Shown here: positions 10,088 to 49,390 of the stretch, in pieces
Numbering within the stretch: position 1 is the first letter of the stretch
Layout: every line of letters begins with the position of its first letter
DNA from: Promethearchaeia archaeon
GTDB taxonomy: Archaea > Asgardarchaeota > Lokiarchaeia > Sigyniarchaeales > SOKP01
DNA: 64,000 nucleotides
Assembly (NCBI GenBank): GCA_029856045.1
Contig: JAHQWG010000016.1
Location: 288,001-352,000, forward strand
Direction of reading: 5' to 3'
The notes under the pieces: model-generated
What the model was told of the DNA's origin: nothing
Databases searched by the model: none
Seen by the model: only the letters and a program-made list of their open reading frames with translations
Translations under genes and position numbers: made by a program

Positions 10088-10825
10088 ATAATTCATAGTT
10101 TCTATTTAATCCATCAACTTACGGGAATCTGCATGATTTATAGGAAATATGGAGCAATTGAATTAAATCAAGATCTAGTTTCGGGGTTTCTAACTGCTCT
10201 AAAAGATTTCGCAAGCGAGATAAGTAAAGGTAAGGGGCAACTCAAGATTGTAGACATGCGACTCTTCAACCTAATCCTTGTTTTTAAAGCAGGAGTCTTA
10301 GTGGTGGTTGCAGCTGATAAAAATGATTCTAGAGAAATCGCTCAAGCGAGACTTGAAGAAATAGTAGATGTTTTTATGGAAAAATATTCTGAATACATAG
10401 GTGAAGATAATTGGACAGGAGATATTCGTATATTTAAAGGATTTGAAACAATTATTGATAAAATTCTCGAAGTTGGAAAGGCAAGTGAAGTCCCAATTAG
10501 AATTCCCATTTTAAAAATATATAAGAAAGATTATGAAAAATCTCAAAAAAAGATAGCCAAAAAAGGGTTAATTCTTCAAGAAGTAGATTTTAGATCAACT
10601 ATTGAAGGAACTTACAAACCTGAATGGACCTCAAAGAGATTACCTAAACAAGTTGTGAGTCAAGGAATGCTTTCAGAACAAGAATATGAAATTTCCCATC
10701 TATGCGACGGATTTCATACTTTAGAAAAAATTGCAGAAGAAGCGGGTATTCCAGAAAACGATATAGGGTTAATTATTGATGAATTAGATGAGCTTGGATT
10801 GCTAGAATTTATAATAATTCAGTAA
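10088..10825 (+). CDS. Longin domain + C-terminal winged-helix protein (NPRL2-like); start probably ATA at 10088
   Basis: IHSFYLIHQLTGICMIYRKYG and DLVSGFLTALKDF longin pattern; C-terminal CDGFHTLEKIAEEAGI..LDELGLLEF wHTH; AGGTG SD just before the ATA. Confidence 0.75.
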   Translation: MIHSFYLIHQLTGICMIYRKYGAIELNQDLVSGFLTALKDFASEISKGKGQLKIVDMRLFNLILVFKAGVLVVVAADKNDSREIAQARLEEIVDVFMEKYSEYIGEDNWTGDIRIFKGFETIIDKILEVGKASEVPIRIPILKIYKKDYEKSQKKIAKKGLILQEVDFRSTIEGTYKPEWTSKRLPKQVVSQGMLSEQEYEISHLCDGFHTLEKIAEEAGIPENDIGLIIDELDELGLLEFIIIQ

Positions 10826-10934
10826 TTATTAATAATTTTTCAAAGTTTGAACTAAATCTATTTTTTATCCTAAAATTTTTAAATTTCATACTTCTTAAAT
10901 TATTTAAAACTTATATTAAGAAGAGATTATAAAA

Positions 10935-11252
10935 ATGACGTATATGATTTTCATCTCAACTGTACCTAATCTTGAAGAAGGAAAGAAAATTGCACGTTTT
11001 CTAGTAGAACAAAAAATTATTGCATGCTGTAATATCATTTCTAATGTGATTTCAATATATGAATGGGAGGAAAAAATTGAGGAAGGCAATGAACTTTTAT
11101 TAATCATTAAAACCAAAAAAGAAAACAGTAAAAAATTAATTGATATTATAAATAGCATACATAGCTATGAAGTTTCTGAATGTATAGGTTTTGATATTAC
11201 AGAAGGATCAAAGAAATATTTAGATTGGATGGATAAAATAATAAAGATTTAA
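10935..11252 (+). CDS. cutA: Divalent-cation tolerance protein CutA
   Basis: IACCNI, SIYEWEEKIE, LLIIKT, HSYEVSE, YLDW. Confidence 0.95.
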   Translation: MTYMIFISTVPNLEEGKKIARFLVEQKIIACCNIISNVISIYEWEEKIEEGNELLLIIKTKKENSKKLIDIINSIHSYEVSECIGFDITEGSKKYLDWMDKIIKI

Positions 11253-11260
11253 TATATCTT

Positions 11261-12100
11261 ATGCAAGTTCATTGGATTTTTCAAATTGATTGGTTTTTTT
11301 GGGGCACAATTATTATTATCTTATTAATTATTTTCCTAATCTCAGTTAAAATTTTTAAGAATACACATCGTTGGAGAAATTTTTTATCGAATCCTTTGAT
11401 TATGGTAAAAAAAAACAAGAATTTTGAAATTCAATGTGGAGAACAAGAAATTTTTAAAATTTCATTCACATTATTTGAATCTATAATCACTGATGTTGCT
11501 GATAATAAAGATAAAAAGACTTCAAATCTTCTGATTATTCTCAAGAAGAGGAGATATAATACATATCCATTTGCAGAAGCTCTTGCTTCAATCGATCTTA
11601 AGGTAATTTTTATAGATTTCAAAAAAATTAGGAAAATTGAAGGTAAAAAACTAGTTAAGATAAAAATTAGTGGGTTATTAATTGATAAAATTTCAAAAGC
11701 GATTTATATTCATTTTGTTAAATTAGGAGATATTCCTAAGTACCAAAAAATTGTCTTTCTCTTTCCTAATCTTACTAATCATTTTTTAAAAATCTCTACA
11801 TTAACAAATCTTTTTGACAAATTTTTTCTGATATTAAGTAATTTTTCAGCGAATTATGAGATTTTAAAGAACTTTTTAAATCAAGACATAATTGACATAA
11901 AGAATCTTTATTTTATTATCCCATTAAAGAGATTCTTAAAAAAAAATGAAGATCAATTGAATAAAATTAATAGATTAAAAGAGAATTATAAAATACACGA
12001 AAAAAATTTTTTAATTCTTGAAAACTCTTTTAAATCGTTAAAAAATTATGAAACAATCATTATTGGCTTTATTTTAAATAATATTTTTAAAAAACAATAA
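11261..12100 (+). CDS. Hypothetical protein with N-terminal membrane anchor
   Basis: Hydrophobic stretch at residues ~12-32; the rest is possibly a degenerate alpha/beta-hydrolase-like fold. Confidence 0.55.
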   Translation: MQVHWIFQIDWFFWGTIIIILLIIFLISVKIFKNTHRWRNFLSNPLIMVKKNKNFEIQCGEQEIFKISFTLFESIITDVADNKDKKTSNLLIILKKRRYNTYPFAEALASIDLKVIFIDFKKIRKIEGKKLVKIKISGLLIDKISKAIYIHFVKLGDIPKYQKIVFLFPNLTNHFLKISTLTNLFDKFFLILSNFSANYEILKNFLNQDIIDIKNLYFIIPLKRFLKKNEDQLNKINRLKENYKIHEKNFLILENSFKSLKNYETIIIGFILNNIFKKQ

Positions 12101-12121
12101 GTATTAACTAAAAAATGTTCG

Positions 12122-12829
12122 ATGACAAAAGAAAAGATTTCGATGGAATATTCAAATAAGGTTATTTATGATAAAAACCATTGGGATATATTAACTCATA
12201 AACGAGATCGAGCAAAAAAGATTTTATCCATGTTTTATAAAGAAGGTTTAAACCCTTTGGTGTTTGGGAGTTTAGCACGGGGAGATGTGAAAAAGAGTAG
12301 TGATATAGATATAATTTTTCCCGATAAAACTCCTACATATAAATTAGAGATTATTATTGAAAAAAATGGAGAATATATTATTGCTAAGGACATAATTCAA
12401 GCAACTCCAGGAGACACAATCAAGGCAAATATTTATATATCCGAGCAAGAATGTTTAACAGTTCCTTTAACGAAATTCATGAAAAAATCTTTTCAATTCT
12501 ATCAATTTGGTGGTTGTCTTGATTTAGATCAGCTTTTAAAAAATGAAAGGGTTCCAGGCATAGACAAAAATTTAATATTAAAGATACCATCCAAATATGG
12601 CCATAATGAGCTTGATCTTAAAAATAATGAATTATTTACTTCGAAATTATTAAATATTGATATGGAATTTATACTTCAAAGAATACGTGTTTTAACTAGA
12701 AGGGATAAAGTTGGCAGAACTGGAGTTTTCCTACATGAAAAATTAAATTTAGAGGATAATTTTGAAAAAGTGTTAAAGAATATTAGTGATCGAAATTCTC
12801 TTGTGAGAAGGATACTTATGAAAGACTGA
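12122..12829 (+). CDS. Nucleotidyltransferase-domain (Pol beta-like) conserved archaeal protein
   Basis: FGSLARGDVKKSSDIDI; IIQATP; FYQFGG; RVPGIDK; RIRVLTRRDKVGRTGVF. Confidence 0.88.
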   Translation: MTKEKISMEYSNKVIYDKNHWDILTHKRDRAKKILSMFYKEGLNPLVFGSLARGDVKKSSDIDIIFPDKTPTYKLEIIIEKNGEYIIAKDIIQATPGDTIKANIYISEQECLTVPLTKFMKKSFQFYQFGGCLDLDQLLKNERVPGIDKNLILKIPSKYGHNELDLKNNELFTSKLLNIDMEFILQRIRVLTRRDKVGRTGVFLHEKLNLEDNFEKVLKNISDRNSLVRRILMKD

Positions 12830-12841
12830 GGTTAAATAAAA

Positions 12842-13972
12842 TTGACACGAGCAGAATTATTTAGAACTAAAGGTGAATCTTATTTTATTCGTGGGATTCC
12901 TAAGGGATGTAAATATTGTATAAAAGGACAAAAGGTCGTTCTATTCCTTAATGGAATTTGTCAGAAACCTGATCATTGTTCTTGGTATTGTCCTATCTCA
13001 GAAGAAAGAAAAAATAAAGAAATAACATACGCTGATGAAATTCAGGTTAAAGATTCTAAAGATTTATTAAAAGAAATTAATCTTGTAAAAGCCAAAGGTG
13101 TTTCAATAACTGGTGGAGAACCTCTTGCCCCTAATAATATAAATCAGACCCTGGATTACATAATTTTTTTAAAAAAAGAAATGGGATCTGATTTTCATAT
13201 ACATCTATATACCAATGGAATTAATTTTAATGAGCAATTAGCGCAAAAATTATCATTGGTAGGATTAGATGAGATAAGATTTCATCCTTCTAAGGAGAAT
13301 TGGATTAATATTAAATATGCGTTATATAAAGGTATGTCTGTGGGTGCAGAAGTTCCGGTAATTCCTGATAAAAAGAATTTGAAAACTCTAAAAGAATTTA
13401 TCTATTTTGTAGATAATCTTAATTGTGATTTTATCAATTTAAATGAATTTGAAATGTGTTTTCCAAATAGTGAATCTCTTAAATCTAAAGGATTTTTATT
13501 GAAAGAAGGAACAATGGCATCTGTTAAAAAAAGCGAAGAATCAGCTCTCAAACTAATTGAAAATGTAGCAAAAAAAACAAAGTTAAATCTTCACTATTGC
13601 CCTATTATTTTAAAGGATCATTATCAATTAAAAAATCGATATAAACGGAGAGCAAGAAGTATTAAGGCACCCTATGAAGTAGTTAATAATGCAGGTCTTC
13701 TTATTTATGCACAAATTGAAGGTACAGCAGTATCTCTAAGGGAGTTTAGCGATAATGTCATATCAAAATTAAACTTACCTGAAAGTCTCTTTTCTTTTAA
13801 AGAATCAAAAATTAATTTACCATGGTATATTCCAATTCACCAAAAATTTGTTGGAGAATTAAAAAAATACGAATTAGAGTGCTACATTATTGAAGGAACA
13901 CCATTTCGCGACAAATATTTTCAAATAACTGAGAAAACACCAATAAGCTTAATTAATATTATTAAAGAATGA
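12842..13972 (+). CDS. Radical SAM protein (conserved archaeal family)
   Basis: PKGCKYC..GQKVVLF, CQKPDHCSWYCP, SITGGEPL, HIHLYTNG, GLDEIRFHP, NLNEFE. Confidence 0.88.
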   Translation: MTRAELFRTKGESYFIRGIPKGCKYCIKGQKVVLFLNGICQKPDHCSWYCPISEERKNKEITYADEIQVKDSKDLLKEINLVKAKGVSITGGEPLAPNNINQTLDYIIFLKKEMGSDFHIHLYTNGINFNEQLAQKLSLVGLDEIRFHPSKENWINIKYALYKGMSVGAEVPVIPDKKNLKTLKEFIYFVDNLNCDFINLNEFEMCFPNSESLKSKGFLLKEGTMASVKKSEESALKLIENVAKKTKLNLHYCPIILKDHYQLKNRYKRRARSIKAPYEVVNNAGLLIYAQIEGTAVSLREFSDNVISKLNLPESLFSFKESKINLPWYIPIHQKFVGELKKYELECYIIEGTPFRDKYFQITEKTPISLINIIKE

Positions 13973-14454
13973 TATATTTATTAGTAAAGTTGCTCTTGAA
14001 ATTGACATTATCGATGATTATAAAAGATGTTACAAATAAAGATATAGAGGAGATCTCTTATTTAGAAGAAAAAATATTTGGAATAGATGCATTTTCTACG
14101 GATCTTCTAAAAAAATTACTAAATAATAAATTATTGTTCATAAAATTAGTTAATGAAACTGAAAAAATCCTTGGATTTTCTATTTCTATTGAGGGTTCTA
14201 AAAATCAAGCAAATATAATTAATTTTTTAATAATAGAAGAGTATCAACATCAAGGATTAGGCTCCTTTCTATTAAAAAGGACATTAAAAGAAATAAAAAA
14301 TAAAAATAAATTTAAATCAATTATTCTAAATGTAAAAATTGACAATGATGTCGCAATTCATTTATATGAAAAGTATGGTTTTAAAGTAATCAAAATAATT
14401 GATAACTATTATGAATCTGGAGCCTCATCAAATTTGATGAAACTTAAGTTGTAG
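13969..14454 (+). CDS. rimI: GNAT N-acetyltransferase (RimI/Ard1-like); the start may be the ATG at 14014
   Basis: YQHQGLGSFLL, LNVKIDNDVAIHLYEKYGF, NYYESG. Confidence 0.8.
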   Translation: MIYLLVKLLLKLTLSMIIKDVTNKDIEEISYLEEKIFGIDAFSTDLLKKLLNNKLLFIKLVNETEKILGFSISIEGSKNQANIINFLIIEEYQHQGLGSFLLKRTLKEIKNKNKFKSIILNVKIDNDVAIHLYEKYGFKVIKIIDNYYESGASSNLMKLKL

Positions 14455-14539
14455 TTGGTTTAAAAATATCTAGATAATTATAAATATACCGATTTTGTAT
14501 TATCATAATATATAAAGTATAGATATAGGGATAAGGAAA

Positions 14540-14692
14540 ATGCCACAACTTGATGATGAGTTAAAGAAAGCTATTAAAGAGGGTAAAACATTAAGCCCTG
14601 TCGACCAAACAGAAGTAGACAGGATAAAAGCCGAACGCGAAAAAAGAAAGCAAGAACTGGAAAAAGTCAAAGAGTCTTTAGAAAAGAAATAA
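14540..14692 (+). CDS. Small 50-aa protein with an N-terminal WH2/actobindin-like motif (not in the ORF track)
   Basis: MPQLDDELKKAIKEGKTLSPVDQTEVDRIKAEREKRKQELEKVKESLEKK*; purine-rich AGGGATAAGGA before the ATG, TATATAAA at ~14509, T-rich tract after the stop. Confidence 0.75.
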   Translation: MPQLDDELKKAIKEGKTLSPVDQTEVDRIKAEREKRKQELEKVKESLEKK

Positions 14693-14788
14693 TCTTATTT
14701 TAATTATTTTTTTCCTCACTTTTTTTTTAAAATATTCATTATATTCCTAGATGAATAAATTTAACCTTTAGGAGCTTGATAAATTCTT

Positions 14789-15856: not shown

Positions 15857-15882
15857 ATTAAATTTAAAAAAAGATTTGTACC

Positions 15883-16911: not shown

Positions 16912-16997
16912 CCTAAATATTAGTAAATTTTTAAATTTTTAAAAAATATTATAATAAAAATAAAAAAATAAAACAATAAAAAAAAGGGGAAATCAAA

Positions 16998-17618
16998 ATG
17001 ACGATATTGACACCCGAGGATGAGATAGATTTAGCAAAATTTGAAGTGGAACTCGTAAAGAATTGGAATAAAATGATTGGCTCTCAAAAGAGTGTTACAG
17101 CAGCTCATATGAGATTATCTAACCTTATTATCAAAGAAAATTCTGCACGAGAAATTTTTTTAAGAACTGCTAGAGATGTGTATAAACAAATGAAAGTACT
17201 AGCAAGAGAAAAAATGTCTAATATCGATGAGGATGATGAGAAAATAATTCAAAAAATAATTCATGATAATGAACAAATATTTGAAAATAATAAAAAATTT
17301 CTTAACGCTATAAAAGATCTAGGATTACAAAGAGAATATTTACATAAAGAATTTCAAGAATTAACTGAAGCATTAAAGGAGGTATCTTCAAAAAGAAAAG
17401 CGGTTGTTAATAAAGCTTTAAAAATCGAAATATCTAAGAATAAATTAATTGAAGGAGAGAAACTTGAAATGATGGATCAAGAATTTAAAGATATACAAAA
17501 GGAGTTTGACAGATCTAAAGGACGTTTTTTGAAAAAAGTTGAACATATCGAATCAACGAGGAATGAAGTTAATTCTTTATGGAATAAACTAAAAGATTCT
17601 ATTATGGGATTTGACTGA
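16998..17618 (+). CDS. All-helical coiled-coil protein, BAR-domain-like
   Basis: 206 aa with three long amphipathic helices and almost no Pro; strong SD (AAGGGGA). Confidence 0.6.
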   Translation: MTILTPEDEIDLAKFEVELVKNWNKMIGSQKSVTAAHMRLSNLIIKENSAREIFLRTARDVYKQMKVLAREKMSNIDEDDEKIIQKIIHDNEQIFENNKKFLNAIKDLGLQREYLHKEFQELTEALKEVSSKRKAVVNKALKIEISKNKLIEGEKLEMMDQEFKDIQKEFDRSKGRFLKKVEHIESTRNEVNSLWNKLKDSIMGFD

Positions 17619-17741
17619 ATTAAAAAAAAAATATCTAAATTTAAAATATTAGTATAGAATAATTGAAAAATAAAAAGGTAAATAATTAAAAATAAATATT
17701 TAATCGATTATAATTAAATAGAAAAATTTTTTTCTTAGGGG

Positions 17742-18158
17742 ATGATAAAAATAGCCGAAGAATTTAATTCAATGTTAGCTGCAACCCGGAAAGCACCACT
17801 TGATGAGAAACTCAAAGGACTTGCAGATATTATTGAAAGTATAATGCAAATTTTGTTAAAAATTCCTAATTTAGTAGATCAAAGCTTAACTGTTATAAAT
17901 TCAAGAATCTCTTCAATTGAAGGAAAGGTCACTTCATTGGAAACAAAAGTTGGTCAAGGAGCTACGGCTGTATCGGCAGAAGCTGGAAGTCTGGCTCGAT
18001 CCCCAGTAACTCCACCACCTCCGCCAGGAACACCTCCACCACCTCCGGGACGCCCACCTGCTGGACCTCAACCAGCGAGAGCAGCTAATCCAGTCTCTCT
18101 ACGCGGAGCAATCATGGGGGAATTGAAGGAGTTATTTTCAAAAAGAAAAAAAATATAA
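17742..18158 (+). CDS. Coiled-coil + polyproline + C-terminal amphipathic/basic (WH2/FAB-like) protein; the start may be ATA at 17751
   Basis: INSRISSIEGKVTSLETKV heptads; TPPPPPGTPPPPPGRPP; SLRGAIMGELKELFSKRKK. Confidence 0.8.
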   Translation: MIKIAEEFNSMLAATRKAPLDEKLKGLADIIESIMQILLKIPNLVDQSLTVINSRISSIEGKVTSLETKVGQGATAVSAEAGSLARSPVTPPPPPGTPPPPPGRPPAGPQPARAANPVSLRGAIMGELKELFSKRKKI

Positions 18159-22274: not shown

Positions 22275-22290
22275 ATAAGGAAGGTGCCCG

Positions 22291-23262
22291 ATTATTAACT
22301 GCCCTGTATGTAACGTTGAGATGGAACAACTCGTTCAAGAAATATTTCAATGTCCAAAGTGTAAAAAAATTATTAAAGGACAGATTAAAGAAATTAAAAA
22401 AAAGAAAGAAGTTGCTGTTGGAGAAATTCAAGAAGGAGATTATTTTCATAACAACGCTAGTTTAAATAAGAAATATGAAATTTGTGAAAAAGGAATTACA
22501 ATATCTAAATCTCCAAATAGGTGGGTGGCAGCATTACTCTGTCATAGCTCCTATTTAAGCAGCTCTAAATATATCAGACTTAGTTGGTGGAAAAAGGAAA
22601 TAAATACACATGCAGGCTTTTTCAAAATAACTGAATCTATAGTATTGGATAATTTAATCAAATCCTTAAAAAAAATAAATTCTTCATTTGATGAGTATTG
22701 GGGTAATTTTAAAGGATTTGAAAAAAAAAAAATAGAAACAGAAGAAAAAGCAATTCAAAATGAGCGTCTAAAAATTCTAAAGTATAGAATTCTCGAAAAT
22801 AAAATTTGCCCGAATTGTAGTAAAAAATTATCATTAAGTAAAAGAAAAACACATTATGAATGTGAACACTGTGGCGAGATCATCATCTTGGAATCTCATA
22901 ATGAACCTATTTTTAATATTGATCCTAAAGATCTCTCATTAGAATTCTCAACAAATTTTCCTATCAACTTTTACCTCCCCGTAGCGGGTATTACTATAGA
23001 ATGGTTAATGAGTTTATGGAAAGCTATAGTTGTTATATATTCAAAAGATAACCCCAATAAGAAATGGTTAAGATTCTATGCTTGGGAAAGGAATTTGCAA
23101 CAACTGCTAAAATACGGATATTATGAAGCCGGTGATGGAGGACAATTATCTTGGACTACAAAAAAAGGAACAGGCTCACCTAATATTTTTGATAAATCAG
23201 AAGTCCCTATTCTAATAGATGCTCTAAAAAAGCTTCAGAAAGAAATAGGTTGGGTTAAATAA
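22291..23262 (+). CDS. Two Zn ribbons alternating with two PC4/PUR-like repeats; start probably ATT at 22291
   Basis: CPVC (upstream of the ATG)..CPKC; CPNC..CEHC; internal repeat GITI-x5-W-x-A...K-x2-R-x3-W. Confidence 0.7.
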   Translation: MINCPVCNVEMEQLVQEIFQCPKCKKIIKGQIKEIKKKKEVAVGEIQEGDYFHNNASLNKKYEICEKGITISKSPNRWVAALLCHSSYLSSSKYIRLSWWKKEINTHAGFFKITESIVLDNLIKSLKKINSSFDEYWGNFKGFEKKKIETEEKAIQNERLKILKYRILENKICPNCSKKLSLSKRKTHYECEHCGEIIILESHNEPIFNIDPKDLSLEFSTNFPINFYLPVAGITIEWLMSLWKAIVVIYSKDNPNKKWLRFYAWERNLQQLLKYGYYEAGDGGQLSWTTKKGTGSPNIFDKSEVPILIDALKKLQKEIGWVK

Positions 23263-24471: not shown

Positions 24472-25740
24472 ATGGTTAGAGAAAGATGGACAGACATTTT
24501 AGCTAGATACTTAACATATTTAAGTCATCTGGTTCCAATTCTCAAAGAAACAAAGAAAACTGTCCAAAATATGAGTTTGGAAGTGATGATGGACGTAAAG
24601 ATTTTTGATAAGATTAAAATGGACGAAGAAAAACGATTAGTGAAGAAAGTGAGGGCTTTATCCGAATTCTCGGCATATTATAGAGGTGAAGTATTTGAAA
24701 ATATAAAAAATTTTATATACAAATATGCTGAGGATTTAGAACCTATAGATATTAAAGATTATCTAATTGAATTTTTTGATGAATGCATAAGTGCTTTAGA
24801 AATATTAATGAATGTTACAAACCCAGATCAAAAAAAATTAAATTCCACATATTTATATCTTCTTTACAAATATTTAGAAGATCTTTTATTACCTATAGGT
24901 AAAAATTTTGAAGAAATTTACATGAAGTTGAATAAAACATCAAAAAATTGGCATGAATGTCAAAGGTATATGATGATTCCTCATACATATTATAGGGAAA
25001 CTGTGGATAACCCCGATTTCTTCGAAATTCCCGGTATTTCTCCAAAATTATACCAAATAATTAATAATATAACCTCTTTATACAACTTGGATCCTAATTA
25101 TTATCCGTGTCCTGAAGATTCTAACATAGAAATTCCAGTAGTCTTGATTGAAGATGTTTTTGAAGCATTTATTGATAATATTGCTCATGAAGAGCAAGAA
25201 GCAGTTGAAAAAATTTGTGAACGTTTAGGATTAAGAGTTCTAGATGGGATTTTTCTTGCTCCCAAGTATGATTTTATAGATGTTCTAATTAAACTTGATT
25301 TCCTTAGAGAGAATAAACAATCTGATGGCAAGATTAGATTAATACCTCAATTCAGTAATGAAACTTTAATTTTAAGTTATCTAGCGTTCGTTTCTTTCCG
25401 TCGAGGTTTTTTATCTAAAGAATTAATTAATTGGATTTCTATGACATTTGCGTTCATTATTTTTTCAACGATTTTAAAATCTCAATTAAGTGATCATAAT
25501 ATTTTCTATCCTATTTTTACTGGTTTGAAAACTCAAGAAAAAGTAATACCTTATATGATGAAACTTCTATGCTTTAATAATTATTTGAAATTAGATAGGA
25601 TGAAAATACGAGATTCTGTCCAGTACAGAAAAGAAATTTTTAATTTTGCAGGATCTAGCATAGATTGCATTAAGCAATTAATTTTAGATTTAAGTGAATA
25701 TTTAAAAGAAATAAAAAAAAAAAAAAAAGAAGGGGTGTAA
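24472..25740 (+). CDS. Hypothetical protein (422 aa, helical)
   Basis: Long ORF, AGGGGGA SD; ends in an A16 tract (KKKKKEGV*). Confidence 0.75.
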   Translation: MVRERWTDILARYLTYLSHLVPILKETKKTVQNMSLEVMMDVKIFDKIKMDEEKRLVKKVRALSEFSAYYRGEVFENIKNFIYKYAEDLEPIDIKDYLIEFFDECISALEILMNVTNPDQKKLNSTYLYLLYKYLEDLLLPIGKNFEEIYMKLNKTSKNWHECQRYMMIPHTYYRETVDNPDFFEIPGISPKLYQIINNITSLYNLDPNYYPCPEDSNIEIPVVLIEDVFEAFIDNIAHEEQEAVEKICERLGLRVLDGIFLAPKYDFIDVLIKLDFLRENKQSDGKIRLIPQFSNETLILSYLAFVSFRRGFLSKELINWISMTFAFIIFSTILKSQLSDHNIFYPIFTGLKTQEKVIPYMMKLLCFNNYLKLDRMKIRDSVQYRKEIFNFAGSSIDCIKQLILDLSEYLKEIKKKKKEGV

Positions 25741-25746
25741 GAAAAA

Positions 25747-26823
25747 ATTACATATTCAGATGATGAAATTAAAGAAAGGCTTGATAAGTATGGAACGGTT
25801 TATTTACCAAATGAAATTATAGAGAATGTTGATGATATTTTAGGAAATGAGATTCTAAAGGAAAGGCTTGAAGATTTTTTCAGTTCCTTAAAAAAATATA
25901 GTGAAGTTGTTGAAAAATTAAAAAAGACTAAATTAGTCCCAAATTTAACTGTCCTCCTATATGGACCACCTGGAACTGGAAAAACTTCTTTAGCTCGAGC
26001 ATTTGCAAAGGAATTTGATATCCCATTGTGTGTAGTAGAGTCTGACAGATTAGTTTCTGCATTATTAGGCGATACCGTTAAAAATATTAGAAAAGTTGTG
26101 GAATTATCAGCTCAGATTGCGGAAGAAAATGGAGCTTTTATATTGTTTTTTGATGAAATTGATGCAATTGCATCCGAAAGATCGAATATTCACGAAGTAG
26201 GCGAAATTAAAAGAGCTGTAATATCTTTCTTACAAATAATTGATAAAATAAACTACTTTGGAACACCATTAGCAATTTTAGGTGCTACTAACCATCAAGA
26301 CCAATTAGATTCTGCAATTTGGAGGAGATTCACATTTCATTTGAAATTTGATTTTCCTACATTTCATCTCAGGAAGAAAATAATTGAGGCTTTTATTAAT
26401 AAAATTAGTAACGCAAAAATTGGAGTAGATGATGTAATTCTTGTTAGTTTAAACAAAGAATATGCATTATTAAAATCTAAGGAAGAAAAATTAAAGCCTA
26501 TAGTAAGAAATGAAAAATATTCACAAGATTTGGATGAATTGTGGAATGATAAAAAAATTATCGAGAATAGAGGAATTTTATTTTTAACGCGTGGATACAC
26601 AGGTGCAGATTTAGAGCGTGGAGTGAGAGTTGCTCTGTTTAAAGCATTAAAAAATGACATTTTAACCTATGAAAATTTTACCCATTCCTTAGAATTAGTA
26701 GGAGGTACTAAAATCCATGTTGAACAACAATATTTTTTGAGTGTTTCTGAAAGGAAATCTTCCAGGGATAAAAAAATATCAAGAATAAACAACAACAATC
26801 TGGAAGGTCCTCGTGAAATTTAA
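25747..26823 (+). CDS. AAA+ ATPase (classic AAA clade, single module); start at ATT 25747
   Basis: Walker A YGPPGTGKT at 25960-25986 lies upstream of the ORF-track start; pore loop LVSALLGDT, Walker B ILFFDEID, GATNH, SRH LDSAIWRRF, GYTGADLE. Confidence 0.9.
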   Translation: MTYSDDEIKERLDKYGTVYLPNEIIENVDDILGNEILKERLEDFFSSLKKYSEVVEKLKKTKLVPNLTVLLYGPPGTGKTSLARAFAKEFDIPLCVVESDRLVSALLGDTVKNIRKVVELSAQIAEENGAFILFFDEIDAIASERSNIHEVGEIKRAVISFLQIIDKINYFGTPLAILGATNHQDQLDSAIWRRFTFHLKFDFPTFHLRKKIIEAFINKISNAKIGVDDVILVSLNKEYALLKSKEEKLKPIVRNEKYSQDLDELWNDKKIIENRGILFLTRGYTGADLERGVRVALFKALKNDILTYENFTHSLELVGGTKIHVEQQYFLSVSERKSSRDKKISRINNNNLEGPREI

Positions 26824-26884: not shown

Positions 26885-27952
26885 ATGGAATCAGAGAACA
26901 TAATCTTTTCTGCAGAAAGAATAAAAGGATTAACTAATCCTATTGATAAAATTCGAGGAAAATTAAATTTAATTAATAAATTATATCTCAATTATAAAGA
27001 AACTCTAAAAAATTTACTTAAAAAACCCAATCTAATAGAGAATGATAGAATAAAATTCTTTAATGATTTAGATAACACATTAGAAGAAATATATTCAAAA
27101 TTATCCAAAAACTCTGAACTTAACTTAGAAAATTGGTTGTCAATTAAAGATTTACTTTTATCTGAATATATTCTTTCAATAAAAAACATTTTAACAGAAA
27201 AAAAAATTTCTCAAGATTCTCTTAAAAAAGTTGGTATTTCATTAATTAAAAACAAGAAAGTATCATCTTTTTTAGAAAAAACAAGTTTTATTTTTTCACT
27301 CGATGTTGATTTTTGGGAATCAATAGTTAATTCATTAAAAAATAACCCTGATTTTCTAAAAACCCTAAATAAAATAAAAAAATTTTGTCAAAATGAGAGG
27401 GAACGAATATTAAATATTGAACTAAATAAAATTCCTAAAAACATCGACTATAAAATTATCAATGAGTTTAAAAAAGAATTCAGAAAAAACAAAATTTCTT
27501 TTAAAGAATTCATGATAACTTCAGAATCCAGATTTCCTAAAACTAAATTTGCCACCCAAAAGATTACTTTAGACACAAAAAAGAAAAAGAATGAACTTGA
27601 TATATTAAAAGAAAAACAAGAGACACGATTCAAATCTTATGATAAATTATTTACTCTTTCCGAAGATGAATTTCAAAGATTAAAACGTAAAAAAAAAAGA
27701 AAAAAATTAGATTCTTTATCTAAATTAGAAAAAAAAGAATACCCTCCTGATGATAAAAAAAAGGAGAAGGACAAGAAAGAAGAATCAACCCAAACCACAA
27801 AACAAGATATATTTAGTAGAGATATAATAGAAAATAATGAAGCTGATATCGATCCTTTAGAAGTTATTAGAAAAAGAAAGCAAAAAAAGGAAGAAGAATT
27901 TGAAAAACACTTAAATAAAATTCAAAAAAAAAATAAAAGAGGTTCAAACTAA
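26885..27952 (+). CDS. Hypothetical helical protein with highly charged basic C-terminal tail
   Basis: Operon context; K/E-rich C-terminus (RLKRKKKRKK, RKRKQKK). Confidence 0.7.
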   Translation: MESENIIFSAERIKGLTNPIDKIRGKLNLINKLYLNYKETLKNLLKKPNLIENDRIKFFNDLDNTLEEIYSKLSKNSELNLENWLSIKDLLLSEYILSIKNILTEKKISQDSLKKVGISLIKNKKVSSFLEKTSFIFSLDVDFWESIVNSLKNNPDFLKTLNKIKKFCQNERERILNIELNKIPKNIDYKIINEFKKEFRKNKISFKEFMITSESRFPKTKFATQKITLDTKKKKNELDILKEKQETRFKSYDKLFTLSEDEFQRLKRKKKRKKLDSLSKLEKKEYPPDDKKKEKDKKEESTQTTKQDIFSRDIIENNEADIDPLEVIRKRKQKKEEEFEKHLNKIQKKNKRGSN

Positions 27953-29514
27953 TTAATTCTGGTTCATTTGTAATAAAAATAAAAGATTTTTCAGTGGAAA
28001 TTAAAAATAAATTTAATATTATTCAAGGCAAATTTCTTTCTCAGGATTTAAATCAACTTCAATTGGGCAATTATATCCACCTTCTTGATGATGTTCCAAA
28101 AATAAGCTTAGAAAAGTTACTGATTTTATATAAAAATAATTCAAAAGGACAGAAAAATCTAATTGACAATATTAATTTTATTGAATTTATAGCAAAATAT
28201 ACTCAAATAACTCAAAAAGATATTAAATTTTTAGATAAATATATCTCTTTTTTAGAAAGTTGTATTTCACTATTAAGATTAAACCAGCTCAATCTTGAAA
28301 AAAAAAAATTAAAAACCGAACTAAAAATTGCCCAAGAAAGAAATAAATCAGCAGAAATTTCTACTAAAATAACTCTATTAAATAAATTAAACGAATCAAT
28401 TAAAGAATACAACACTAGATTAAAACTTTTTGAAGAGGATTTTTTACCCATCAAAAATCAAAAAAAAATGCTTGAAGACAAACTTGGGAATTTAAAAAAA
28501 ACACAAATTGAATTTAGAAAAGAACAAAAGGATATTTTTAATAAGATTAATATTCTTACTCGAGAAGAAGAGAGCCAAAACAATGATCAAAATGAAAAAA
28601 TTGAGACCCTAAGGAAAAATGCTAAAATTCTAAGAGATAAAATTGATGATATCAAGCAAAAAATTGAAAATTCCCAATATAAATTAAATCAGAATTTGCC
28701 GAAATTTAAAGAATTTGATAAAATTTATCATAACCTAAAAGAAAATCTTGAAATTGATAAGAAAAAAATGAGAAATCTTCGAATAGAATTAGAAGAAGTT
28801 ATTGATTTAAATAAATTGGATGAATTAACAGAATCTGGTTTAAAAGAACTATCTTATATAAGACCGATAAGCTTAATCAAATCAAATATTGATAACATCA
28901 CTAATGAAATAATAAAAATTGAAAGTTTCAATCAAAAGTATTTTAAAAATAAAAATAATCTCTTAATAAAAGATTTAAAGATGTTTAAATCCAATTTAGA
29001 CAACTTTTTTTCGAATCAGTTGGAAGAATTCGATAGTAATGAGCTTGAAAGCAAAATAAAATCTTTAAAGAAATTAGGTATTTGGCTATATAAATTCCAA
29101 AAATTACTAAATGAATTTTTGGAAACGATTAATTTAAAAATCTCTATTGATTTTTTTTTAAATTTGACACCAAATTTTGCTAAAAATAGTCAGATTATTA
29201 TAAATTTCAAACGTTTTAAAGAAGAAGCTATCATTTATGATAATTTAACTACTCCTGAGAAGGTATTTTTTATAATATGTTTTTACTTAACCATTGAAAG
29301 TCTTAAAAATAAAAGAAACATCATTTTCACAAATCTTATAATACCTGAGGATTATAACAAAAAAGGTTCTATTTTTAGAACTTTAACAAAAATTATGCCT
29401 ATTTTTAATGAAAGTCCAGATTTAAAGGAGAAATCATTAACTTTTCTAATTTCTGGATTCAAACTAACAAAAGATATCAAAAATGTTCAAATATATAATA
29501 TAAATAATACTTAA
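27952..29514 (+). CDS. SMC/Rad50-like coiled-coil protein with degenerate ABC head motifs; start probably ATT at 27952
   Basis: N-terminal IKIKDFSVEIKNKFNIIQGK; ~250-aa coiled coil; C-terminal YDNLTTPEKVFFIICFYLTI (cf. LSGGEK) and IIFTNL (cf. Walker B), FLIS (H-loop strand). Confidence 0.65.
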   Translation: MNSGSFVIKIKDFSVEIKNKFNIIQGKFLSQDLNQLQLGNYIHLLDDVPKISLEKLLILYKNNSKGQKNLIDNINFIEFIAKYTQITQKDIKFLDKYISFLESCISLLRLNQLNLEKKKLKTELKIAQERNKSAEISTKITLLNKLNESIKEYNTRLKLFEEDFLPIKNQKKMLEDKLGNLKKTQIEFRKEQKDIFNKINILTREEESQNNDQNEKIETLRKNAKILRDKIDDIKQKIENSQYKLNQNLPKFKEFDKIYHNLKENLEIDKKKMRNLRIELEEVIDLNKLDELTESGLKELSYIRPISLIKSNIDNITNEIIKIESFNQKYFKNKNNLLIKDLKMFKSNLDNFFSNQLEEFDSNELESKIKSLKKLGIWLYKFQKLLNEFLETINLKISIDFFLNLTPNFAKNSQIIINFKRFKEEAIIYDNLTTPEKVFFIICFYLTIESLKNKRNIIFTNLIIPEDYNKKGSIFRTLTKIMPIFNESPDLKEKSLTFLISGFKLTKDIKNVQIYNINNT

Positions 29515-38703: not shown

Positions 38704-39918
38704 TTATCTTCTCTTTTTACTTCTTTTCTTTTGTGATAAATTCTGAGACTTTTTTTGGCTCTTTTTTGGTGGATTTGGATATTTTCGTTTGATCTCTTCA
38801 ATCTTTTGATTAACTTCATTTAATAATTGATCTCCTAATAGCTTATCAGAAAAATAATCTAATTTTGCAGCTATTGATATTTTTCCAGATAATAATCGAG
38901 AAATTTTCCCCCTGTGCCAAGGTTTTGCAGAGCGAATTCCATGCCATTGAAATATAATACCATGCTTCGGAGATTTTGCATTTGATTTTAAGGATCTAAA
39001 TAATGCCCTTTCTGCTCCCAATAACTGAATAGTTGAGGCTGGTAGCATAGCTAACTTTTTAATGCTCCCGACAGAAGCCACTAATTTAGCTCCGATTAAT
39101 GCTCCTACAAGCGTTGTCAAATTAGGGGTTGCTCCATTCATTATTTCATCTAAATCATTTTCTAATCGCGTTCGATATGACTCAATAGATAGAATTAAAT
39201 CGGCATATTTCTGAATATTATCAAGGTCAATCTCCGCACCCATTGAATTTTGAGATTGAGTGATGATCTCGTTTAAAGTATAATCTTTAAAAGAAAATTT
39301 ATCTTGAAGGTTCTCTTTAGTAAAATTCTCTCGACTTCCAATAATTGAAATTAATTTACTAAATACTACATGATCCTCAATAATTTTGTCAGTTAATTCC
39401 GGGAAATGTAATCCGTACCACTCTCTAATACGTGTGCTAAACAAATTTATAGTTTTCTTTAATAAATCAAGAGTATTACTCATCTGAATAATTAATATAT
39501 CATCTTTTCCTGAAGCCCGACTTATTGATTTTTTTGCAAGACTTTCCCCTAATTTTTTCGATCGTTCTCTTATTTGTTCCTCCGTTATTTGAACTCCATA
39601 TTTATTAACACTGTTTCTCAAATTTAATTTAAATGATTGAATAAGAGGACACGGAACCTCATGTTTTGCATTAAAATTAGAATTCTGATTAATTAAATTA
39701 CTTAAATTTGAGTTATCAACAATAAATTCATTATACCCATTTTCTGATAACTCTTCTAATAATTTTGTAAATTCTTGAGGTAGATTATTTTCTCCTATTA
39801 GTCCATAGAATTCAATTATTTTATTAATTTCTCCATCAAAATCTTGAAAATTAATTGGACTCTCTAATTCATCAATTATAAAAATCCCAACCACAGTATC
39901 TGCAATATAACACTTAAT
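38704..39918 (-). CDS. nop5: C/D box sRNP core protein Nop5 (Nop56/58); start probably ATT at 39918
   Basis: REWYGLHFPEL, PASTIQLLGAERALF, PKHGIIFQ, AAKLDYF; upstream in-frame IKCYIADT after GGGGA SD. Confidence 0.95.
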   Translation of the reverse strand: MKCYIADTVVGIFIIDELESPINFQDFDGEINKIIEFYGLIGENNLPQEFTKLLEELSENGYNEFIVDNSNLSNLINQNSNFNAKHEVPCPLIQSFKLNLRNSVNKYGVQITEEQIRERSKKLGESLAKKSISRASGKDDILIIQMSNTLDLLKKTINLFSTRIREWYGLHFPELTDKIIEDHVVFSKLISIIGSRENFTKENLQDKFSFKDYTLNEIITQSQNSMGAEIDLDNIQKYADLILSIESYRTRLENDLDEIMNGATPNLTTLVGALIGAKLVASVGSIKKLAMLPASTIQLLGAERALFRSLKSNAKSPKHGIIFQWHGIRSAKPWHRGKISRLLSGKISIAAKLDYFSDKLLGDQLLNEVNQKIEEIKRKYPNPPKKSQKKSQNLSQKKRSKKRR

Positions 39919-41814: not shown

Positions 41815-41833
41815 AAGTTAGAGTCAATTTTTA

Positions 41834-43465: not shown

Positions 43466-43541
43466 TAAAATAAAAAGTTAAAATTTAATGAATAAATAGA
43501 ATTTAAAAAAGTTATAAACCTCCAAAATAACTGTTAAAAGA

Positions 43542-45473: not shown

Positions 45474-46828
45474 GTAAAAATCAAAATAATGAAAAATATC
45501 CTGGATATTCTAAAGACGCAATAGATATTTTAGAAAAATTTGGTGCAAAAATCTGGTCAATTATTGAAATAAAAACAGAAACTACCAGATATAAAGGTAT
45601 TTTACTCCCCCGATCCAAGTATTCAGAACCGGGATTGATCGAAATTAAATTAGAAAATGGTTATAATATTGGAGTTAAAATATCAAAAGATATAGAAATC
45701 AAAATTCTTGGTAATCGTGAAGGAAAATATAAAATACCTGAAAAAACATTTCCTATAAATAAAAAATTACCAAATATCAAGCTTTTTGGTACTGGTGGAA
45801 CTGTTGCAGCTAGACTTGATTATACAACTGGTGCTGTTATTCCTGCCTTCACACCAGGAGAATTATTCAGTGCAGTTCCAGAACTAGCAGATATCTGCAA
45901 TTTAGACACTGAAATTGTCTTTGAAATTCTTTCGGAAGATATGAAACCAAGTTATTGGCAAATGTTGGCGGAAAAGGTAAAAAAGGAAGCAAATGCCGGT
46001 ATCGATGGAATTATTATTGGACATGGAACAGATACTATGAGCTTCACGTCTGCGGCTTTATCTTTTATGCTTAAAGATTTATCCATACCAGTCGTATTAG
46101 TTGGGAGTCAAAGAAGTAGTGATCGTCCATCTTCAGATTCTGCATTAAATTTAATTAATGCTGCAACTGTCGCAGCTAAATCTGACTTAGCAGAAGTAGT
46201 TGTATGTATGTTGGGTTCCTCATCTCATAAATACGGACTCATTCATAGAGGTACACGTGTAAGAAAAATGCACACCTCCTATAGACACACATTCAGAACG
46301 ATTGGAAATATTCCTTTAGGAAAGGTGGAAAATGGAAAAATAACCATGTTTCAAACCGATTATCAAAAAAGAACAAAATCTGAAACCAAAACAATTTCAA
46401 AATTTGAAGAAAAAATTGGATTAATTTATTCCTATCCGGGAATGACAAATGATATTATTAATTTTTATATAGATAAAAAATATAGAGGAATAGTTCTTGC
46501 TGGAACTGGTTTAGGCCATACCTCAACATATATATTTGATTCAATTAAGAGAGCAATTGAAGAAGGAATAATAATTTTAATGGTCTCTCAATGTCTTAAT
46601 GGTTTTGTAGGAATGGATGTTTATTCTACAGGAAGAAATTTAACTCAATTAGGAGTTATTCCTGGTAAAAACTTGTTACCTGAAGTTGCTTACGTAAAAC
46701 TCGGATGGGTATTAGGGCAAACTCAAAATCCCGATGAAATAAAAAATTTATTGTTAAAAAATATTGCAGGAGAATTTTTAGAAAGAGAGATCCCAATCGC
46801 TTTTAATTATAATGCTGATGAATTATAA
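45470..46828 (+). CDS. gatD: Glu-tRNA(Gln) amidotransferase subunit D
   Basis: GTGGTVAARLDYTTG, HGTDTM, GSQRSSDRPSSD, RKMHTS, GTGLGH. Confidence 0.96.
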   Translation: MSKNQNNEKYPGYSKDAIDILEKFGAKIWSIIEIKTETTRYKGILLPRSKYSEPGLIEIKLENGYNIGVKISKDIEIKILGNREGKYKIPEKTFPINKKLPNIKLFGTGGTVAARLDYTTGAVIPAFTPGELFSAVPELADICNLDTEIVFEILSEDMKPSYWQMLAEKVKKEANAGIDGIIIGHGTDTMSFTSAALSFMLKDLSIPVVLVGSQRSSDRPSSDSALNLINAATVAAKSDLAEVVVCMLGSSSHKYGLIHRGTRVRKMHTSYRHTFRTIGNIPLGKVENGKITMFQTDYQKRTKSETKTISKFEEKIGLIYSYPGMTNDIINFYIDKKYRGIVLAGTGLGHTSTYIFDSIKRAIEEGIIILMVSQCLNGFVGMDVYSTGRNLTQLGVIPGKNLLPEVAYVKLGWVLGQTQNPDEIKNLLLKNIAGEFLEREIPIAFNYNADEL

Positions 46829-46920
46829 AAAAATAAACATAAAACATAAAAATTTTGTAATATTTTACTTTTTTATATTTTTAAGCAGTTATTAAAAATA
46901 AACGAACGTTGTGTAATTAG

Positions 46921-47640
46921 ATGGGAAAACGAATTTTAGTTCAGCGTAAAGGACGTGGAGGCTTAAATTTTCGAAGCCCTAGCCATAAACATATTGGATC
47001 GGTCCATTATCGTAATATTATAGACAGAAATGATGTAAAGAAATTCAAAATTATCGAATTACTTCATTCTCCTGGAAGAGGAGCTCCGGTTGCTAGAGTG
47101 AGATATAATGATGGAGAAGTTCATTTGTTCCTTCCTCCAGAAGGTATTTTTGTAGGTGACGAATTTACTCATGGAGCTGGAGGAAAAATTGAAGTTGGTA
47201 ATGTAATTCCAATTAAGGACGCCCCTCTTGGAACTTATGTATTTAACATAGAATCAACACCTTTTGATGGAGGAAAATTCATTAGATCTTCAGGAACTAC
47301 AGGAAATATTATAGGACACTCAAAAAACTCAACAGAAATACAATTCCCTTCAAAAAAAAAGCGTTTATTTAATGATAATTGCTTATGTACGATAGGAATC
47401 GTCGCGGGTGGTGGTAGAACTGAAAAACCATTCGTGAAAGCTGGAAATAAATACCACTATATAAAACCTAAAGCTAAAAAGTGGCCAATTACTCGAGGTG
47501 TAGCCATGAATGCGGTGTCACATCCTCACGGAGGTGGTGCAAAACAGGGACCTGGAGGTCCAACCACAATTTCTCGTAATGCTCCTCCAGGAAGGAAAGT
47601 TGGATTAATTGCAGCAAGAAGATCTGGTCGTAGAAAATAA
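46921..47640 (+). CDS. rpl2: 50S ribosomal protein L2 (uL2)
   Basis: MGKRILVQRKGRG, HSPGRGAPVA, RGVAMNAVSHPHGGG, APPGRKVGLIAARRSG. Confidence 0.98.
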   Translation: MGKRILVQRKGRGGLNFRSPSHKHIGSVHYRNIIDRNDVKKFKIIELLHSPGRGAPVARVRYNDGEVHLFLPPEGIFVGDEFTHGAGGKIEVGNVIPIKDAPLGTYVFNIESTPFDGGKFIRSSGTTGNIIGHSKNSTEIQFPSKKKRLFNDNCLCTIGIVAGGGRTEKPFVKAGNKYHYIKPKAKKWPITRGVAMNAVSHPHGGGAKQGPGGPTTISRNAPPGRKVGLIAARRSGRRK

Positions 47641-47680
47641 AATAAATAAATAATTTTATATTTATTAAAAATCTAGGATA

Positions 47681-49390
47681 TTATTTCGTTTCTTCTCGAA
47701 GCGCCCTTTTTAACACTTTACCTACTGTAGTTAGCGGAAGTTCGTCTCGAAATTCCCAAATTTTCGGATTCTCGTATTTCGAAAGATTTTTATTGCCATA
47801 TTCCTTTATATCTTCTTTTATTGAATCAGTTAATTGAACACCTTCTTTAAGTTTAACAACCGCCTTCACAATTTCACTCCCAGGTCGGTCTGGATCCTTA
47901 ATCCCAATGATAGCAACGAGTTCAATATCAGGATGTTTAACTAAAATATCTTCAACATGAACGCTGTATACTTTATAACCACTTACAATTAACATATCTT
48001 TTGTACGATCTACAATTTTAAGATATCCCTCTTCATCCATTACTCCAACATCACCTGTGTGAAACCAATTATCGATAATTGTTTGTGCATTTGCTTCAGG
48101 TTTCTCATAATATCCTCTAGTTACTTGTGGTCCTCTGCAGATTATTTCCCCAGGTTCCCCGATCCCAACTTGTTCACCTGTTTCTATATCAATGAGCCGG
48201 ATATCAGTATCAGACACTGGTAATCCAACAGTGCCAATTTTTTTTTTCCCAAAATAAGGATTCATTGTAAGAATGGGTGAAGTCTCGGTCATGCCGTATA
48301 CTTCTAAGACTTTATTTCCAGCTTCCATTTTTTTTTCATAGTCGATAATAGCTTCTGCTGGAAATGGTGCTGCTCCCGATACATAAATCTTAACATTGTC
48401 TAATACTGATCTAGGAATCTTTTTTCTTTTTGGATTATTCATTATCATGAGATATAATGTCGGTACATTGCAAATAATAGTAGGTTTTTTATCAATCATT
48501 TCTTCGATTAAATGATCAGTATCTCTTGGATTTGCAATTAATACTTGGGGATTTGAGACCCATACGGAAATCATACAAAATGCTAATCCCGCCAAATGAA
48601 AATAAGGGAAGGCAGATAAAAATACATCCTTACCAACTTCTACCGGTACCCAATTTGAGATCTGGGTCATGTTTGAAATTATATTAGCATGTGTAAGTTC
48701 TGTCCCCTTTGGGTATCCAGTTGTCCCTCCGGTATATTGTAAAAGTGCTAAATCATTATTTACGTCAATCGAGACTTCCTTCACATCAATAAGTGTATTC
48801 ATTACATCTTGAAATGGGATAACTTTCTTTCCTGGAAAAGGTTTCACTTTGCCTTTTGGAATCTTTTTTAATAATTTCCCAAGGAATACTACAAATTTTG
48901 AAAGCCCCATATATTCTGAAATATTCATATGTATTATAATCTCGAGGTTTGGTACTTTATCCAGGACTTTTTCAAGTACTTTTTCATAAATTGCATCTAA
49001 AGTTACAATAACCTTTGCCTTACTGTCATTTAACTGATATGTGATTTCTTCCTCACTTAAAAGGAACGAACAACCCGATGCCACTCCACCAGCTAATAAC
49101 GTTCCAAAGTGTGCAATTAGATATTGAGGACAATTTGGTAAATTAATAGCAACAACATCACCTTTCTTTAATCCATTTTGTTGCAAAAATGTAGCAAATT
49201 TATGAACAAACTCTCGAAGTTCTTTAAAAGTAATTTCTCTCTTCATGAACCAACATGCAGGCTGATCAGGAAATTTTGCCATTCCCTCATCAAAAGTTTT
49301 GCCAAGACTTTCAGTGGAATATTCCAAACTTGGTTTGACTGTTTCATCGTAGCTTTTAATCCAAATTTTTTCATCATACGCAGATGGAAT
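47681..49390 (-). CDS. Long-chain fatty acid--CoA ligase; start probably ATT at 49390
   Basis: YTGGTTGYPKG, VYGMTETSP, WFHTGDVG, DRTKDMLIVSGYKV, VGKVLKR; upstream in-frame YDEKIWIKSYD. Confidence 0.92.
   Translation of the reverse strand: MPSAYDEKIWIKSYDETVKPSLEYSTESLGKTFDEGMAKFPDQPACWFMKREITFKELREFVHKFATFLQQNGLKKGDVVAINLPNCPQYLIAHFGTLLAGGVASGCSFLLSEEEITYQLNDSKAKVIVTLDAIYEKVLEKVLDKVPNLEIIIHMNISEYMGLSKFVVFLGKLLKKIPKGKVKPFPGKKVIPFQDVMNTLIDVKEVSIDVNNDLALLQYTGGTTGYPKGTELTHANIISNMTQISNWVPVEVGKDVFLSAFPYFHLAGLAFCMISVWVSNPQVLIANPRDTDHLIEEMIDKKPTIICNVPTLYLMIMNNPKRKKIPRSVLDNVKIYVSGAAPFPAEAIIDYEKKMEAGNKVLEVYGMTETSPILTMNPYFGKKKIGTVGLPVSDTDIRLIDIETGEQVGIGEPGEIICRGPQVTRGYYEKPEANAQTIIDNWFHTGDVGVMDEEGYLKIVDRTKDMLIVSGYKVYSVHVEDILVKHPDIELVAIIGIKDPDRPGSEIVKAVVKLKEGVQLTDSIKEDIKEYGNKNLSKYENPKIWEFRDELPLTTVGKVLKRALREETK

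Follow-up and report, generated by a model that had tools for sequence, protein, structure and literature searches.

Translation starts at AUU are rarities in bacteria, exemplified by infC (encoding IF3) and pcnB of Escherichia coli, and NCBI table 11 lists ATT, ATC and ATA as rare initiators. With its AUU start, infC is a special case in that synthesis of IF3 rises when proofreading is weak. A stretch of 64,000 nucleotides from a Promethearchaeia archaeon (G000:C27:288001-352000; hereafter the window, meaning the whole stretch of DNA analysed) contains eight genes that appear to begin at ATT or ATA behind a Shine-Dalgarno (SD) sequence, and these start codons are considered here. ATT, ATA and ATC are referred to as ATH (AUH in the mRNA), and ATG, GTG and TTG as canonical codons. 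Judged from comparative sequence analysis, the ATH codons are very probably genuine near-cognate starts that would be decoded by an ordinary initiator tRNA, with aIF1 proposed to influence the set-point of initiation stringency. As in infC and pcnB, an SD-positioned AUU would serve as the start, and, as in infC, a factor acting against non-canonical starts is encoded by a gene with an AUH start of its own. The bacterial cases amount to a handful of genes per genome, whereas ~6-12% of genes are probably involved here; moreover, the fidelity factor is aIF1 (a homologue of eIF1) and not IF3, and its feedback is one that we infer.

Frequent initiation at ATT, ATA and ATC is also found in animal mitochondria and in Mycoplasma and Spiroplasma (NCBI tables 2, 4 and 5), which share an AT-rich genome with the archaeon. 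Those are highly reduced translation systems, some of them with a modified tRNA-Met and with AUA read as methionine, whereas internal ATH codes for isoleucine in the archaeon. Eukaryotic eIF1 is autoregulated through a poor start context. A factor of the eIF1/aIF1 family would thus limit its own synthesis through a weak initiation signal in both settings, but the signal is a weak Kozak context around AUG in eukaryotes and a non-AUG codon behind a strong SD here. Archaeal initiation in general employs eukaryote-type factors (aIF1, aIF1A and aIF2) on mRNAs with SD sequences of the bacterial type.

Ribosome profiling of Haloferax volcanii revealed that ~30% of putative alternative initiation sites are near-cognates of AUG, suggesting that archaeal ribosomes can use such codons (PMC7261190). 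Those were alternative or minor sites that the authors set aside, whereas in the archaeon conserved, essential genes have AUH as their sole start. In a Kariarchaeaceae metagenome-assembled genome (MAG), a methods remark assigned a likely 'rare ATT start codon' to the tubulin gene AtubA (PMC13394414). As in the window, an ATT behind a plausible ribosome-binding site restores sequence missing from a truncated public call, in that case an N-terminal beta-strand, but the remark concerns one gene in Heimdallarchaeia without genome-wide or comparative analysis (PMC13394414). AUU and AUA go unmentioned in a 2020 review of archaeal initiation, and the searchable library yielded no literature combining Lokiarchaeota, start codons and ATT. 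ATH initiation is of a known kind; its scale, host lineage, patchy distribution and connection with aIF1 appear to be undescribed.

Start codons of the window genes and their orthologues

The genome to which the window belongs is a metagenome assembly of 3.34 Mb in 55 contigs (29.4% GC). Orthologous loci were taken from up to 30 relatives, comprising its own genus (g1), 12 other genera of its family (f1) and families f2-f4, and their first codons were aligned. Three or four same-genus assemblies were compared per gene; these are kin, so that their counts are not independent. The orthologue alignments are the strongest evidence for ATH starts. ATG or TTG is reported on the aligned start codon for all eight window genes, and for the acyl-CoA ligase the aligned codon is ATA in G009 and G006. 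An initial annotation had given six firm examples of ATT or ATA initiation behind an SD; the coordinates of all six are correct, and each is backed by ATG/TTG or ATH at the aligned codon, by upstream stops and by SD spacing. Aligning orthologue N-termini was the check it had proposed, and the ATG or TTG codons of other genera do fall on the claimed ATT and ATA codons. An GGAGGTGA-type SD is present at all eight sites, 5-9 nt from the start when ATT 22294 and ATT 39918 are taken for the Zn-ribbon gene and nop5. An in-frame stop lies 0-6 codons upstream of each proposed ATT or ATA and the first canonical codon lies further in, with the exception of the gene at 17751.

The AAA+ ATPase gene (25747..26823, + strand) starts at ATT 25747 behind the SD AAGGGGTG (25730-25737, 9-nt spacer). 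Its frame opens after TAA 25738-25740, and the first canonical codon, TTG 26026, is codon 95 from the upstream stop and residue 94 of the protein read from ATT. The Pfam AAA domain begins, at its position 1, at residue 69 of that protein; hence a TTG start would cost the protein its Walker A motif (GPPGTGKT), which is what the initial annotation had claimed. The aligned codon is ATT in the genome itself, G001, G002, G004 and G006, ATA in G007, TTG in G003 and G011, and ATG in G018 and G016. A 422-aa open reading frame (ORF) with no Pfam family (24472-25740, + strand) lies in frame with the AAA gene frame (25741-26823), a single TAA separating the two. The orthologous AAA frames are 355-377 aa long, most with a stop 1-2 codons upstream whose type and position vary, which indicates two genes and rules out a read-through fusion with the upstream ORF.

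On the opposite strand, nop5 (a Nop56/58 homologue; 38704..39918, - strand) has TAA directly before ATT ATT 39921/39918, the SD AAGGGGA at 39932-39926 (8 nt from its last G to the start) and its first canonical codon, GTG 39894, at codon 9 from the upstream stop. The Pfam archaeal Nop5 N-terminal domain is matched from residue 3 of the protein read from 39921. The second ATT, 39918, matches the ATG of M-K-C-Y-I in eight further f1 genera and that of M-K-A-Y in G026; the ATT start proposed earlier therefore holds, with 39918 a better choice than 39921. The three same-genus relatives have no canonical codon before codon 100, because the GTG of the window gene is GTC or GTA there. The acyl-CoA ligase (AMP-binding) gene (47681..49390, - strand) opens with TGA, ATT, GAA and ATT 49390, the last of which follows the SD GGTGA (49401-49397, 7-nt spacer) and receives a posterior of 0.86 from the start model described below. 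Its first canonical codon is TTG 49327, codon 23 from the upstream stop. In G004 and G003 a stop directly precedes the aligned ATT and the first canonical codons are codons 36 and 57, respectively, while G009 and G006 have ATA behind an SD at the aligned position. A family-typical N-terminus thus lies upstream of every canonical codon in the AAA+ ATPase, and in the same-genus relatives for nop5 and the acyl-CoA ligase.

The gene labelled 'SMC-like' in the initial annotation (27952..29514, + strand) is conserved and of unknown family; it has no Pfam match at E<=0.01, leaving the label unconfirmed. Its start, ATT 27952, forms part of a TAATT stop/start overlap (27950-27954) behind the SD AGAGGT (27938-27943), and its first canonical codon, GTG 27994 (codon 19 from the upstream stop), is not conserved, the first canonical codon of G001 being codon 42. 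The ATT is kept in the same-genus G001 and G004; G003 has ATA-ATT, its first canonical codon being codon 49, and near the same point G016 has ATG and G007 has TTG. In the Zn-ribbon gene (22294..23262, + strand), a stop at 22276-22278 is followed by ATT ATT 22291/22294 and by ATG 22321, the first canonical codon and codon 14 from the stop. The first CPxC half-site is encoded upstream of ATG 22321, in agreement with the earlier claim that the half-site requires an ATT start. That claim had chosen ATT 22291, which is the less likely alternative: ATT 22294, 7 nt behind the SD AAGGAAGGTG (22277-22286), corresponds in 11 other genomes to the ATG or TTG of M-K-C-P-x-C, and its posterior in the start model is 0.49, against 0.26 for 22291.

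The Longin-like gene (10088..10825, + strand) begins at ATA 10088 behind the SD AGGTG (10075-10079, 8-nt spacer). A conserved IHxxY strand is encoded upstream of ATG 10133, which lies downstream of the ATA, and the first canonical codon is codon 21 from the upstream stop. The aligned codon is TTG in G006, ATG in G008, ATA in G005 and G007, and ACG in G009, and same-genus differences in the leader are all synonymous. The G009 orthologue (on C101) has its ACG 8 nt behind GGAGG and no canonical codon before codon 11. A small conserved gene (17751..18158, + strand), listed only tentatively at first, probably starts at ATA 17751, with the SD-like AGGGGATGA at 17737-17745 and a posterior of 0.81. 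The ATA aligns with the ATG of M-A/S-E/D-E-F N-termini (M-A-E-E-F type) in the four genera represented by G005, G006, G007 and G009. ATG 17742 precedes the ATA by three codons and is AAG in the same-genus G001. An eighth case, beyond the earlier list, is a membrane-protein gene (62818..63585, + strand) with ATA 62818 behind the SD AAGGAGGGA (62802-62810). It was flagged by the start model, with posteriors of 0.60 and 0.29 for its two ATAs, and was then backed by orthologue alignment: ATA 62818 aligns with the ATG of M-S-L/F-E-F in G005, G006 and G009, and G003 has ATT with no canonical codon until codon 58.

In same-genus comparisons the ATH start codon is unchanged in 20 of 20 cases. The stretch from there to the first canonical codon has no gaps; its differences number 50 at codon position 3, 18 at position 1 and 12 at position 2, and comprise 44 synonymous and 27 non-synonymous codon changes. 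The third-position bias and the lack of gaps indicate that this stretch is coding, and the recurrence of the same ATH codons in separate assemblies disposes of read or assembly error.

Ribosome-binding sites and genome-wide frequency

The upstream signal of the archaeon was learned de novo from 1240 ORFs with an unambiguous ATG start. The enriched words assemble into GGAGGTGAT, the 16S rRNA ends in GGATCACCTCC, the exact complement of this signal, and the last G of GGTG lies optimally 6-10 nt before the start. Spacing is counted in nucleotides between that G and the start codon; the AUH codons of the window are at the organism's own spacing (5-9 nt against the optimum of 6-10 nt). The SD at all eight sites also speaks against leaderless initiation. 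Across the genome, an SD of >=5 nt at the appropriate distance precedes 60/2329 (2.6%) of the in-frame ATH codons located 5' of the first canonical start (the last four codons being left out), compared with 130/13993 (0.93%) of other codons in these positions.

Start codons were assigned by expectation maximisation, with each of the 61 sense codons admitted as a competing start type; the model combines codon usage, a Markov model of non-coding sequence and a weight matrix for the SD with its spacer distribution. It was run on 2585 ORFs after antisense shadow ORFs had been removed by a coding-score and overlap filter; these ORFs were the source of the ~9% weight that an unfiltered run placed on TCN/CCN codons, which is gone after filtering. 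The resulting start shares are ATG.689, TTG.118, ATT.055, ATA.043, GTG.027, ATC.012, ACG.005 and CTG.004. The composition-matched decoys AAT, TAT, TTA and TTT are outside the 14 highest-weighted codons and received approximately zero weight in the unfiltered run. Non-canonical calls with a posterior >0.8 comprise 20 ATA, 17 ATT, 5 ATC, 5 ACG, 2 CTG and 1 TGT, so that all but the single TGT are one-base neighbours of ATG. The model missed the Longin-like case, for which it preferred ATG 10133, and is therefore not simply over-calling.

In total the model assigns ATH starts to ~285-310 of the 2585 genes. A second estimate comes from 109 long-leader ORFs, defined by a distance of >=30 codons from the stop to the first canonical codon. 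Their best starts comprise 31 ATT, 18 ATA, 5 ATC, 8 ACG and 3 CTG (ATH, ACG or CTG in 65/109), with a far-downstream ATG in 30 and all other codon types in 14. Within the first 15 codons of these ORFs, 9.6% of ATH codons have a strong SD, versus 1.1-1.6% of composition-matched decoys. Canonical codons make up 3.7% of coding codons, so that only ~39% of genes with a non-canonical start should show a long leader, and the 65 extrapolate to ~170. Taken together, ATH starts are probably used by ~6-12% of genes according to these models, the total being model-dependent and lying somewhere between a firm 2.5% (the 65 hard cases, which lack a usable canonical start) and ~12%. The eight among the ~58 genes of the window agree with these figures. 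In this genome, ACG and, less often, CTG act like start codons too, as in the 8 and 3 long-leader ORFs above.

Orthologue alignment gives the same result genome-wide. Model-called non-canonical starts align to ATG in 11/28 orthologue pairs (39%) and ATG starts in 84/205 (41%), and the non-canonical calls are thus indistinguishable from true ATG starts by this measure, compared with 105/4780 (2.2%) for internal isoleucine codons. Those 4780 internal codons align to ATH in 52% of cases and a tRNA-Ile with anticodon GAU is present; internal ATH remains isoleucine, which rules out codon reassignment or a variant genetic code. Operon coupling through termination-reinitiation is likewise ruled out as the cause, since ATH starts follow a same-strand upstream gene within 30 nt no more often (19%) than ATG starts do (20%).

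Relatives, initiator tRNA and aIF1

Use of ATH starts is patchy in the order, occurring in several genera but not all, and follows neither GC content nor family. The shares are ~11% in the genome itself (genus g1, 29% GC, whole genome), ~10% in G005 (another genus of f1, 30% GC, 360 kb; ATT.081, ATA.015, ATC.008), ~7% in G024 (family f2, genus g17, 35% GC, 388 kb) and ~0 in G008 (f1, genus g5, 35% GC, 280 kb with 212 genes). The same-order control G026 (f2, genus g14, 31% GC, 400 kb) has ~1% (ATT.009), with no ATH call at high posterior. AT pressure is not supported as the only cause, since G026 at 31% GC has ~1% and G024 at 35% GC has 7%. The initial annotation had regarded relaxed start-codon selection as a trait of the lineage; the excess of ~11% over ~1% in the control supports the first part, but the patchiness across the order does not fit a clean lineage trait. 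Relaxed selection is what we infer, the initiator tRNA being normal and the only mechanistic clue being the ATH start of the aIF1 gene.

The gene for the initiator tRNA (C27:220560-220656, - strand) has A1:U72, three G:C pairs in the anticodon stem (GGG/CCC), the anticodon CAU and a 20-nt intron. Its inspection had been suggested at the outset; the gene appears ordinary, and the DNA points to no special decoder. It was found with the Rfam tRNA model, an anticodon-arm pattern search having missed it because of the intron. ARAGORN, with and without introns, reported 17-25 tRNAs and no CAU tRNA, compared with 28 tRNAs for the Rfam model. None of these 28 is initiator-like with anticodon UAU, GAU or AAU, although the set is incomplete and the evidence thus weak. 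The tRNA genes of the genome are intron-rich and hard to detect; the window contains three (51271-51352 and 53155-53236 on the - strand, 53370-53441 on the + strand), and a tRNA-Sec-like gene with anticodon TCA is located at C1:2268-2355 (- strand).

aIF1 is the factor that rejects non-AUG complexes (PMC6237735). Its gene (SUI1; G000:C27:190727-191116, + strand) is outside the window and starts at ATA 190766, nine nt behind GTG 190754, which lies inside the SD-like AAGGTAGTG. In the same-genus G003 this GTG is replaced by GGG and the first canonical codon is codon 47. Nine other genera of f1 (g2, g3, g4 and g6-g11) have ATT or ATC at the aligned start, their nearest canonical codon being within the conserved body; seven of the nine have an SD of the type GGT[TAC]GTGA, and AAGGTTGTGA is the SD of aIF1 in five genera. 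Together with the own genus, which includes G003, the gene thus has a conserved ATA, ATT or ATC start in at least 10 genera. The assignment is ambiguous in G008 and G015 (f1) and in G024 (f2), where ATT or ATA is aligned but GTG or TTG is nearby. The start is TTG in genus g14 and ATG in families f3 and f4.

In the proposed mechanism, the SD of the mRNA (consensus GGAGGUGAU) would pair with the 3' end of 16S rRNA (GGAUCACCUCC) and bring an AUH codon lying 6-10 nt further on into the P site, where the ordinary initiator tRNA (CAU) would be accepted despite the third-position mismatch. Decoding of AUH by Met-tRNAi and the efficiency of the AUH codons belong to this proposal, as does the feedback through aIF1. 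Given the AUH start of its own gene, aIF1 synthesis would rise when proofreading is weak, and such a feedback, like that of infC and IF3, could keep initiation stringency at a permissive set-point. A bolder version, possible but less likely than not, is that part of the Promethearchaeota has a deliberately permissive set-point, that the AUH start of aIF1 forms a homeostatic loop convergent with infC and eIF1, and that the ~10% of genes with AUH starts constitute a 'stringency regulon' tracking aIF1 activity. If this version were true, gene regulation and the evolution of start-codon proofreading would be linked in those archaea that are the nearest to eukaryotes. A lineage in which AUH is routine, beside close relatives without it, offers a natural experiment on start-codon stringency. 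The conserved non-AUG start of aIF1 parallels infC/IF3 and the autoregulation of eIF1, and suggests the same feedback logic in all three domains.

Competing explanations and public protein records

Several observations weigh against genuine ATH initiation at the proposed scale. The model total of ~11% includes many low-posterior calls, with only 42 ATH calls >0.8, and a spurious weight of 2% on the AAA codon persists in the filtered model. Median SD scores (ATH 3.4, GTG 3.0, TTG 2.4, ATG 1.5) fit a strong SD that compensates for a weak codon, but those of ATH starts are biased upward by ascertainment. In the genes with short leaders (Zn-ribbon, Longin-like, 17751 and 62818), a nearby or downstream ATG could serve too. 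G008 has an aligned ATT in aIF1 and yet approximately no ATH starts in 212 genes, and the aIF1 feature alone does not predict genome-wide ATH use.

Another view is that translation begins at the first downstream canonical codon and that the conserved upstream stretch is an untranslated leader. In its favour, six of the eight genes have a canonical codon at a distance of 7-23 codons downstream, and the start model prefers ATG 10133 in the Longin-like gene. This view would leave the AAA protein without Walker A and place the start of nop5 in same-genus relatives at codon 100, and the canonical codons of the genome itself are synonymous non-start codons in close relatives; with leader differences that are mostly third-position and synonymous and without indels, this view is very unlikely to be correct. 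Slighter still is the chance of an artefact, through sequencing or assembly error, pseudogenes, or stop read-through from the in-frame ORF upstream of the AAA gene. That frame is continuous with the upstream ORF but for one TAA, and the genome is a 55-contig metagenome assembly. Nevertheless, three or four independent assemblies from the same genus share these ATH codons, the intact ORFs are conserved between genera, and the AAA orthologue frames (355-377 aa) are bounded by stops of varying type and position.

The ATH starts could also be real but sporadic, confined to a few dozen genes (~1-2%) in which weak starts were fixed by AT mutation pressure while the initiation machinery and its set-point are unchanged. 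The 42 calls >0.8 among 2585 genes, the 29% GC of the genome and its ordinary initiator tRNA gene are what one would expect of this, but the long-leader ORFs, which capture only ~39% of such genes, alone contain 65 hard cases, and eight of ~58 window genes are affected. Considering as well that ATH use is ~1% at 31% GC in G026 and 7% at 35% GC in G024, and that the essential genes nop5 and aIF1 carry ATH starts, sporadic use is improbable. Somewhat more plausible, though still unlikely, is a dedicated decoding change in place of permissive proofreading, either a modified C34 of the initiator tRNA or an altered aIF1 or aIF2. There is a precedent in mitochondrial tRNA-Met, in which 5-formylcytidine (f5C) permits AUA reading. 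A patchy distribution that does not track GC suggests a lineage-specific factor, and third-position near-cognates outweigh ACG and CTG; against this, the tRNA gene sequence has nothing unusual, although modifications are invisible in DNA. Near-cognate initiation with an ordinary initiator tRNA is preferred over each of these.

Such initiation has consequences for protein records. Gene callers of the Prodigal type allow only ATG, GTG and TTG, so that public databases perhaps carry one gene in ten of these Asgard genomes in truncated or wrongly started form. The earlier claim that gene callers truncate the proteins of this lineage is illustrated by the AAA+ ATPase: the public cluster containing the genome's own protein has 241 aa (100% identity, 67% of the 358-aa query), public calls in close relatives have 278 and 327 aa, and homologues with canonical starts have 353-370 aa. 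Truncated calls distort structure predictions and searches for eukaryotic signature proteins, and hand repair of such a start was already needed in one tubulin paper (PMC13394414). Close protein relatives in the public records are from MAGs labelled Promethearchaeota or Candidatus Lokiarchaeota archaeon.

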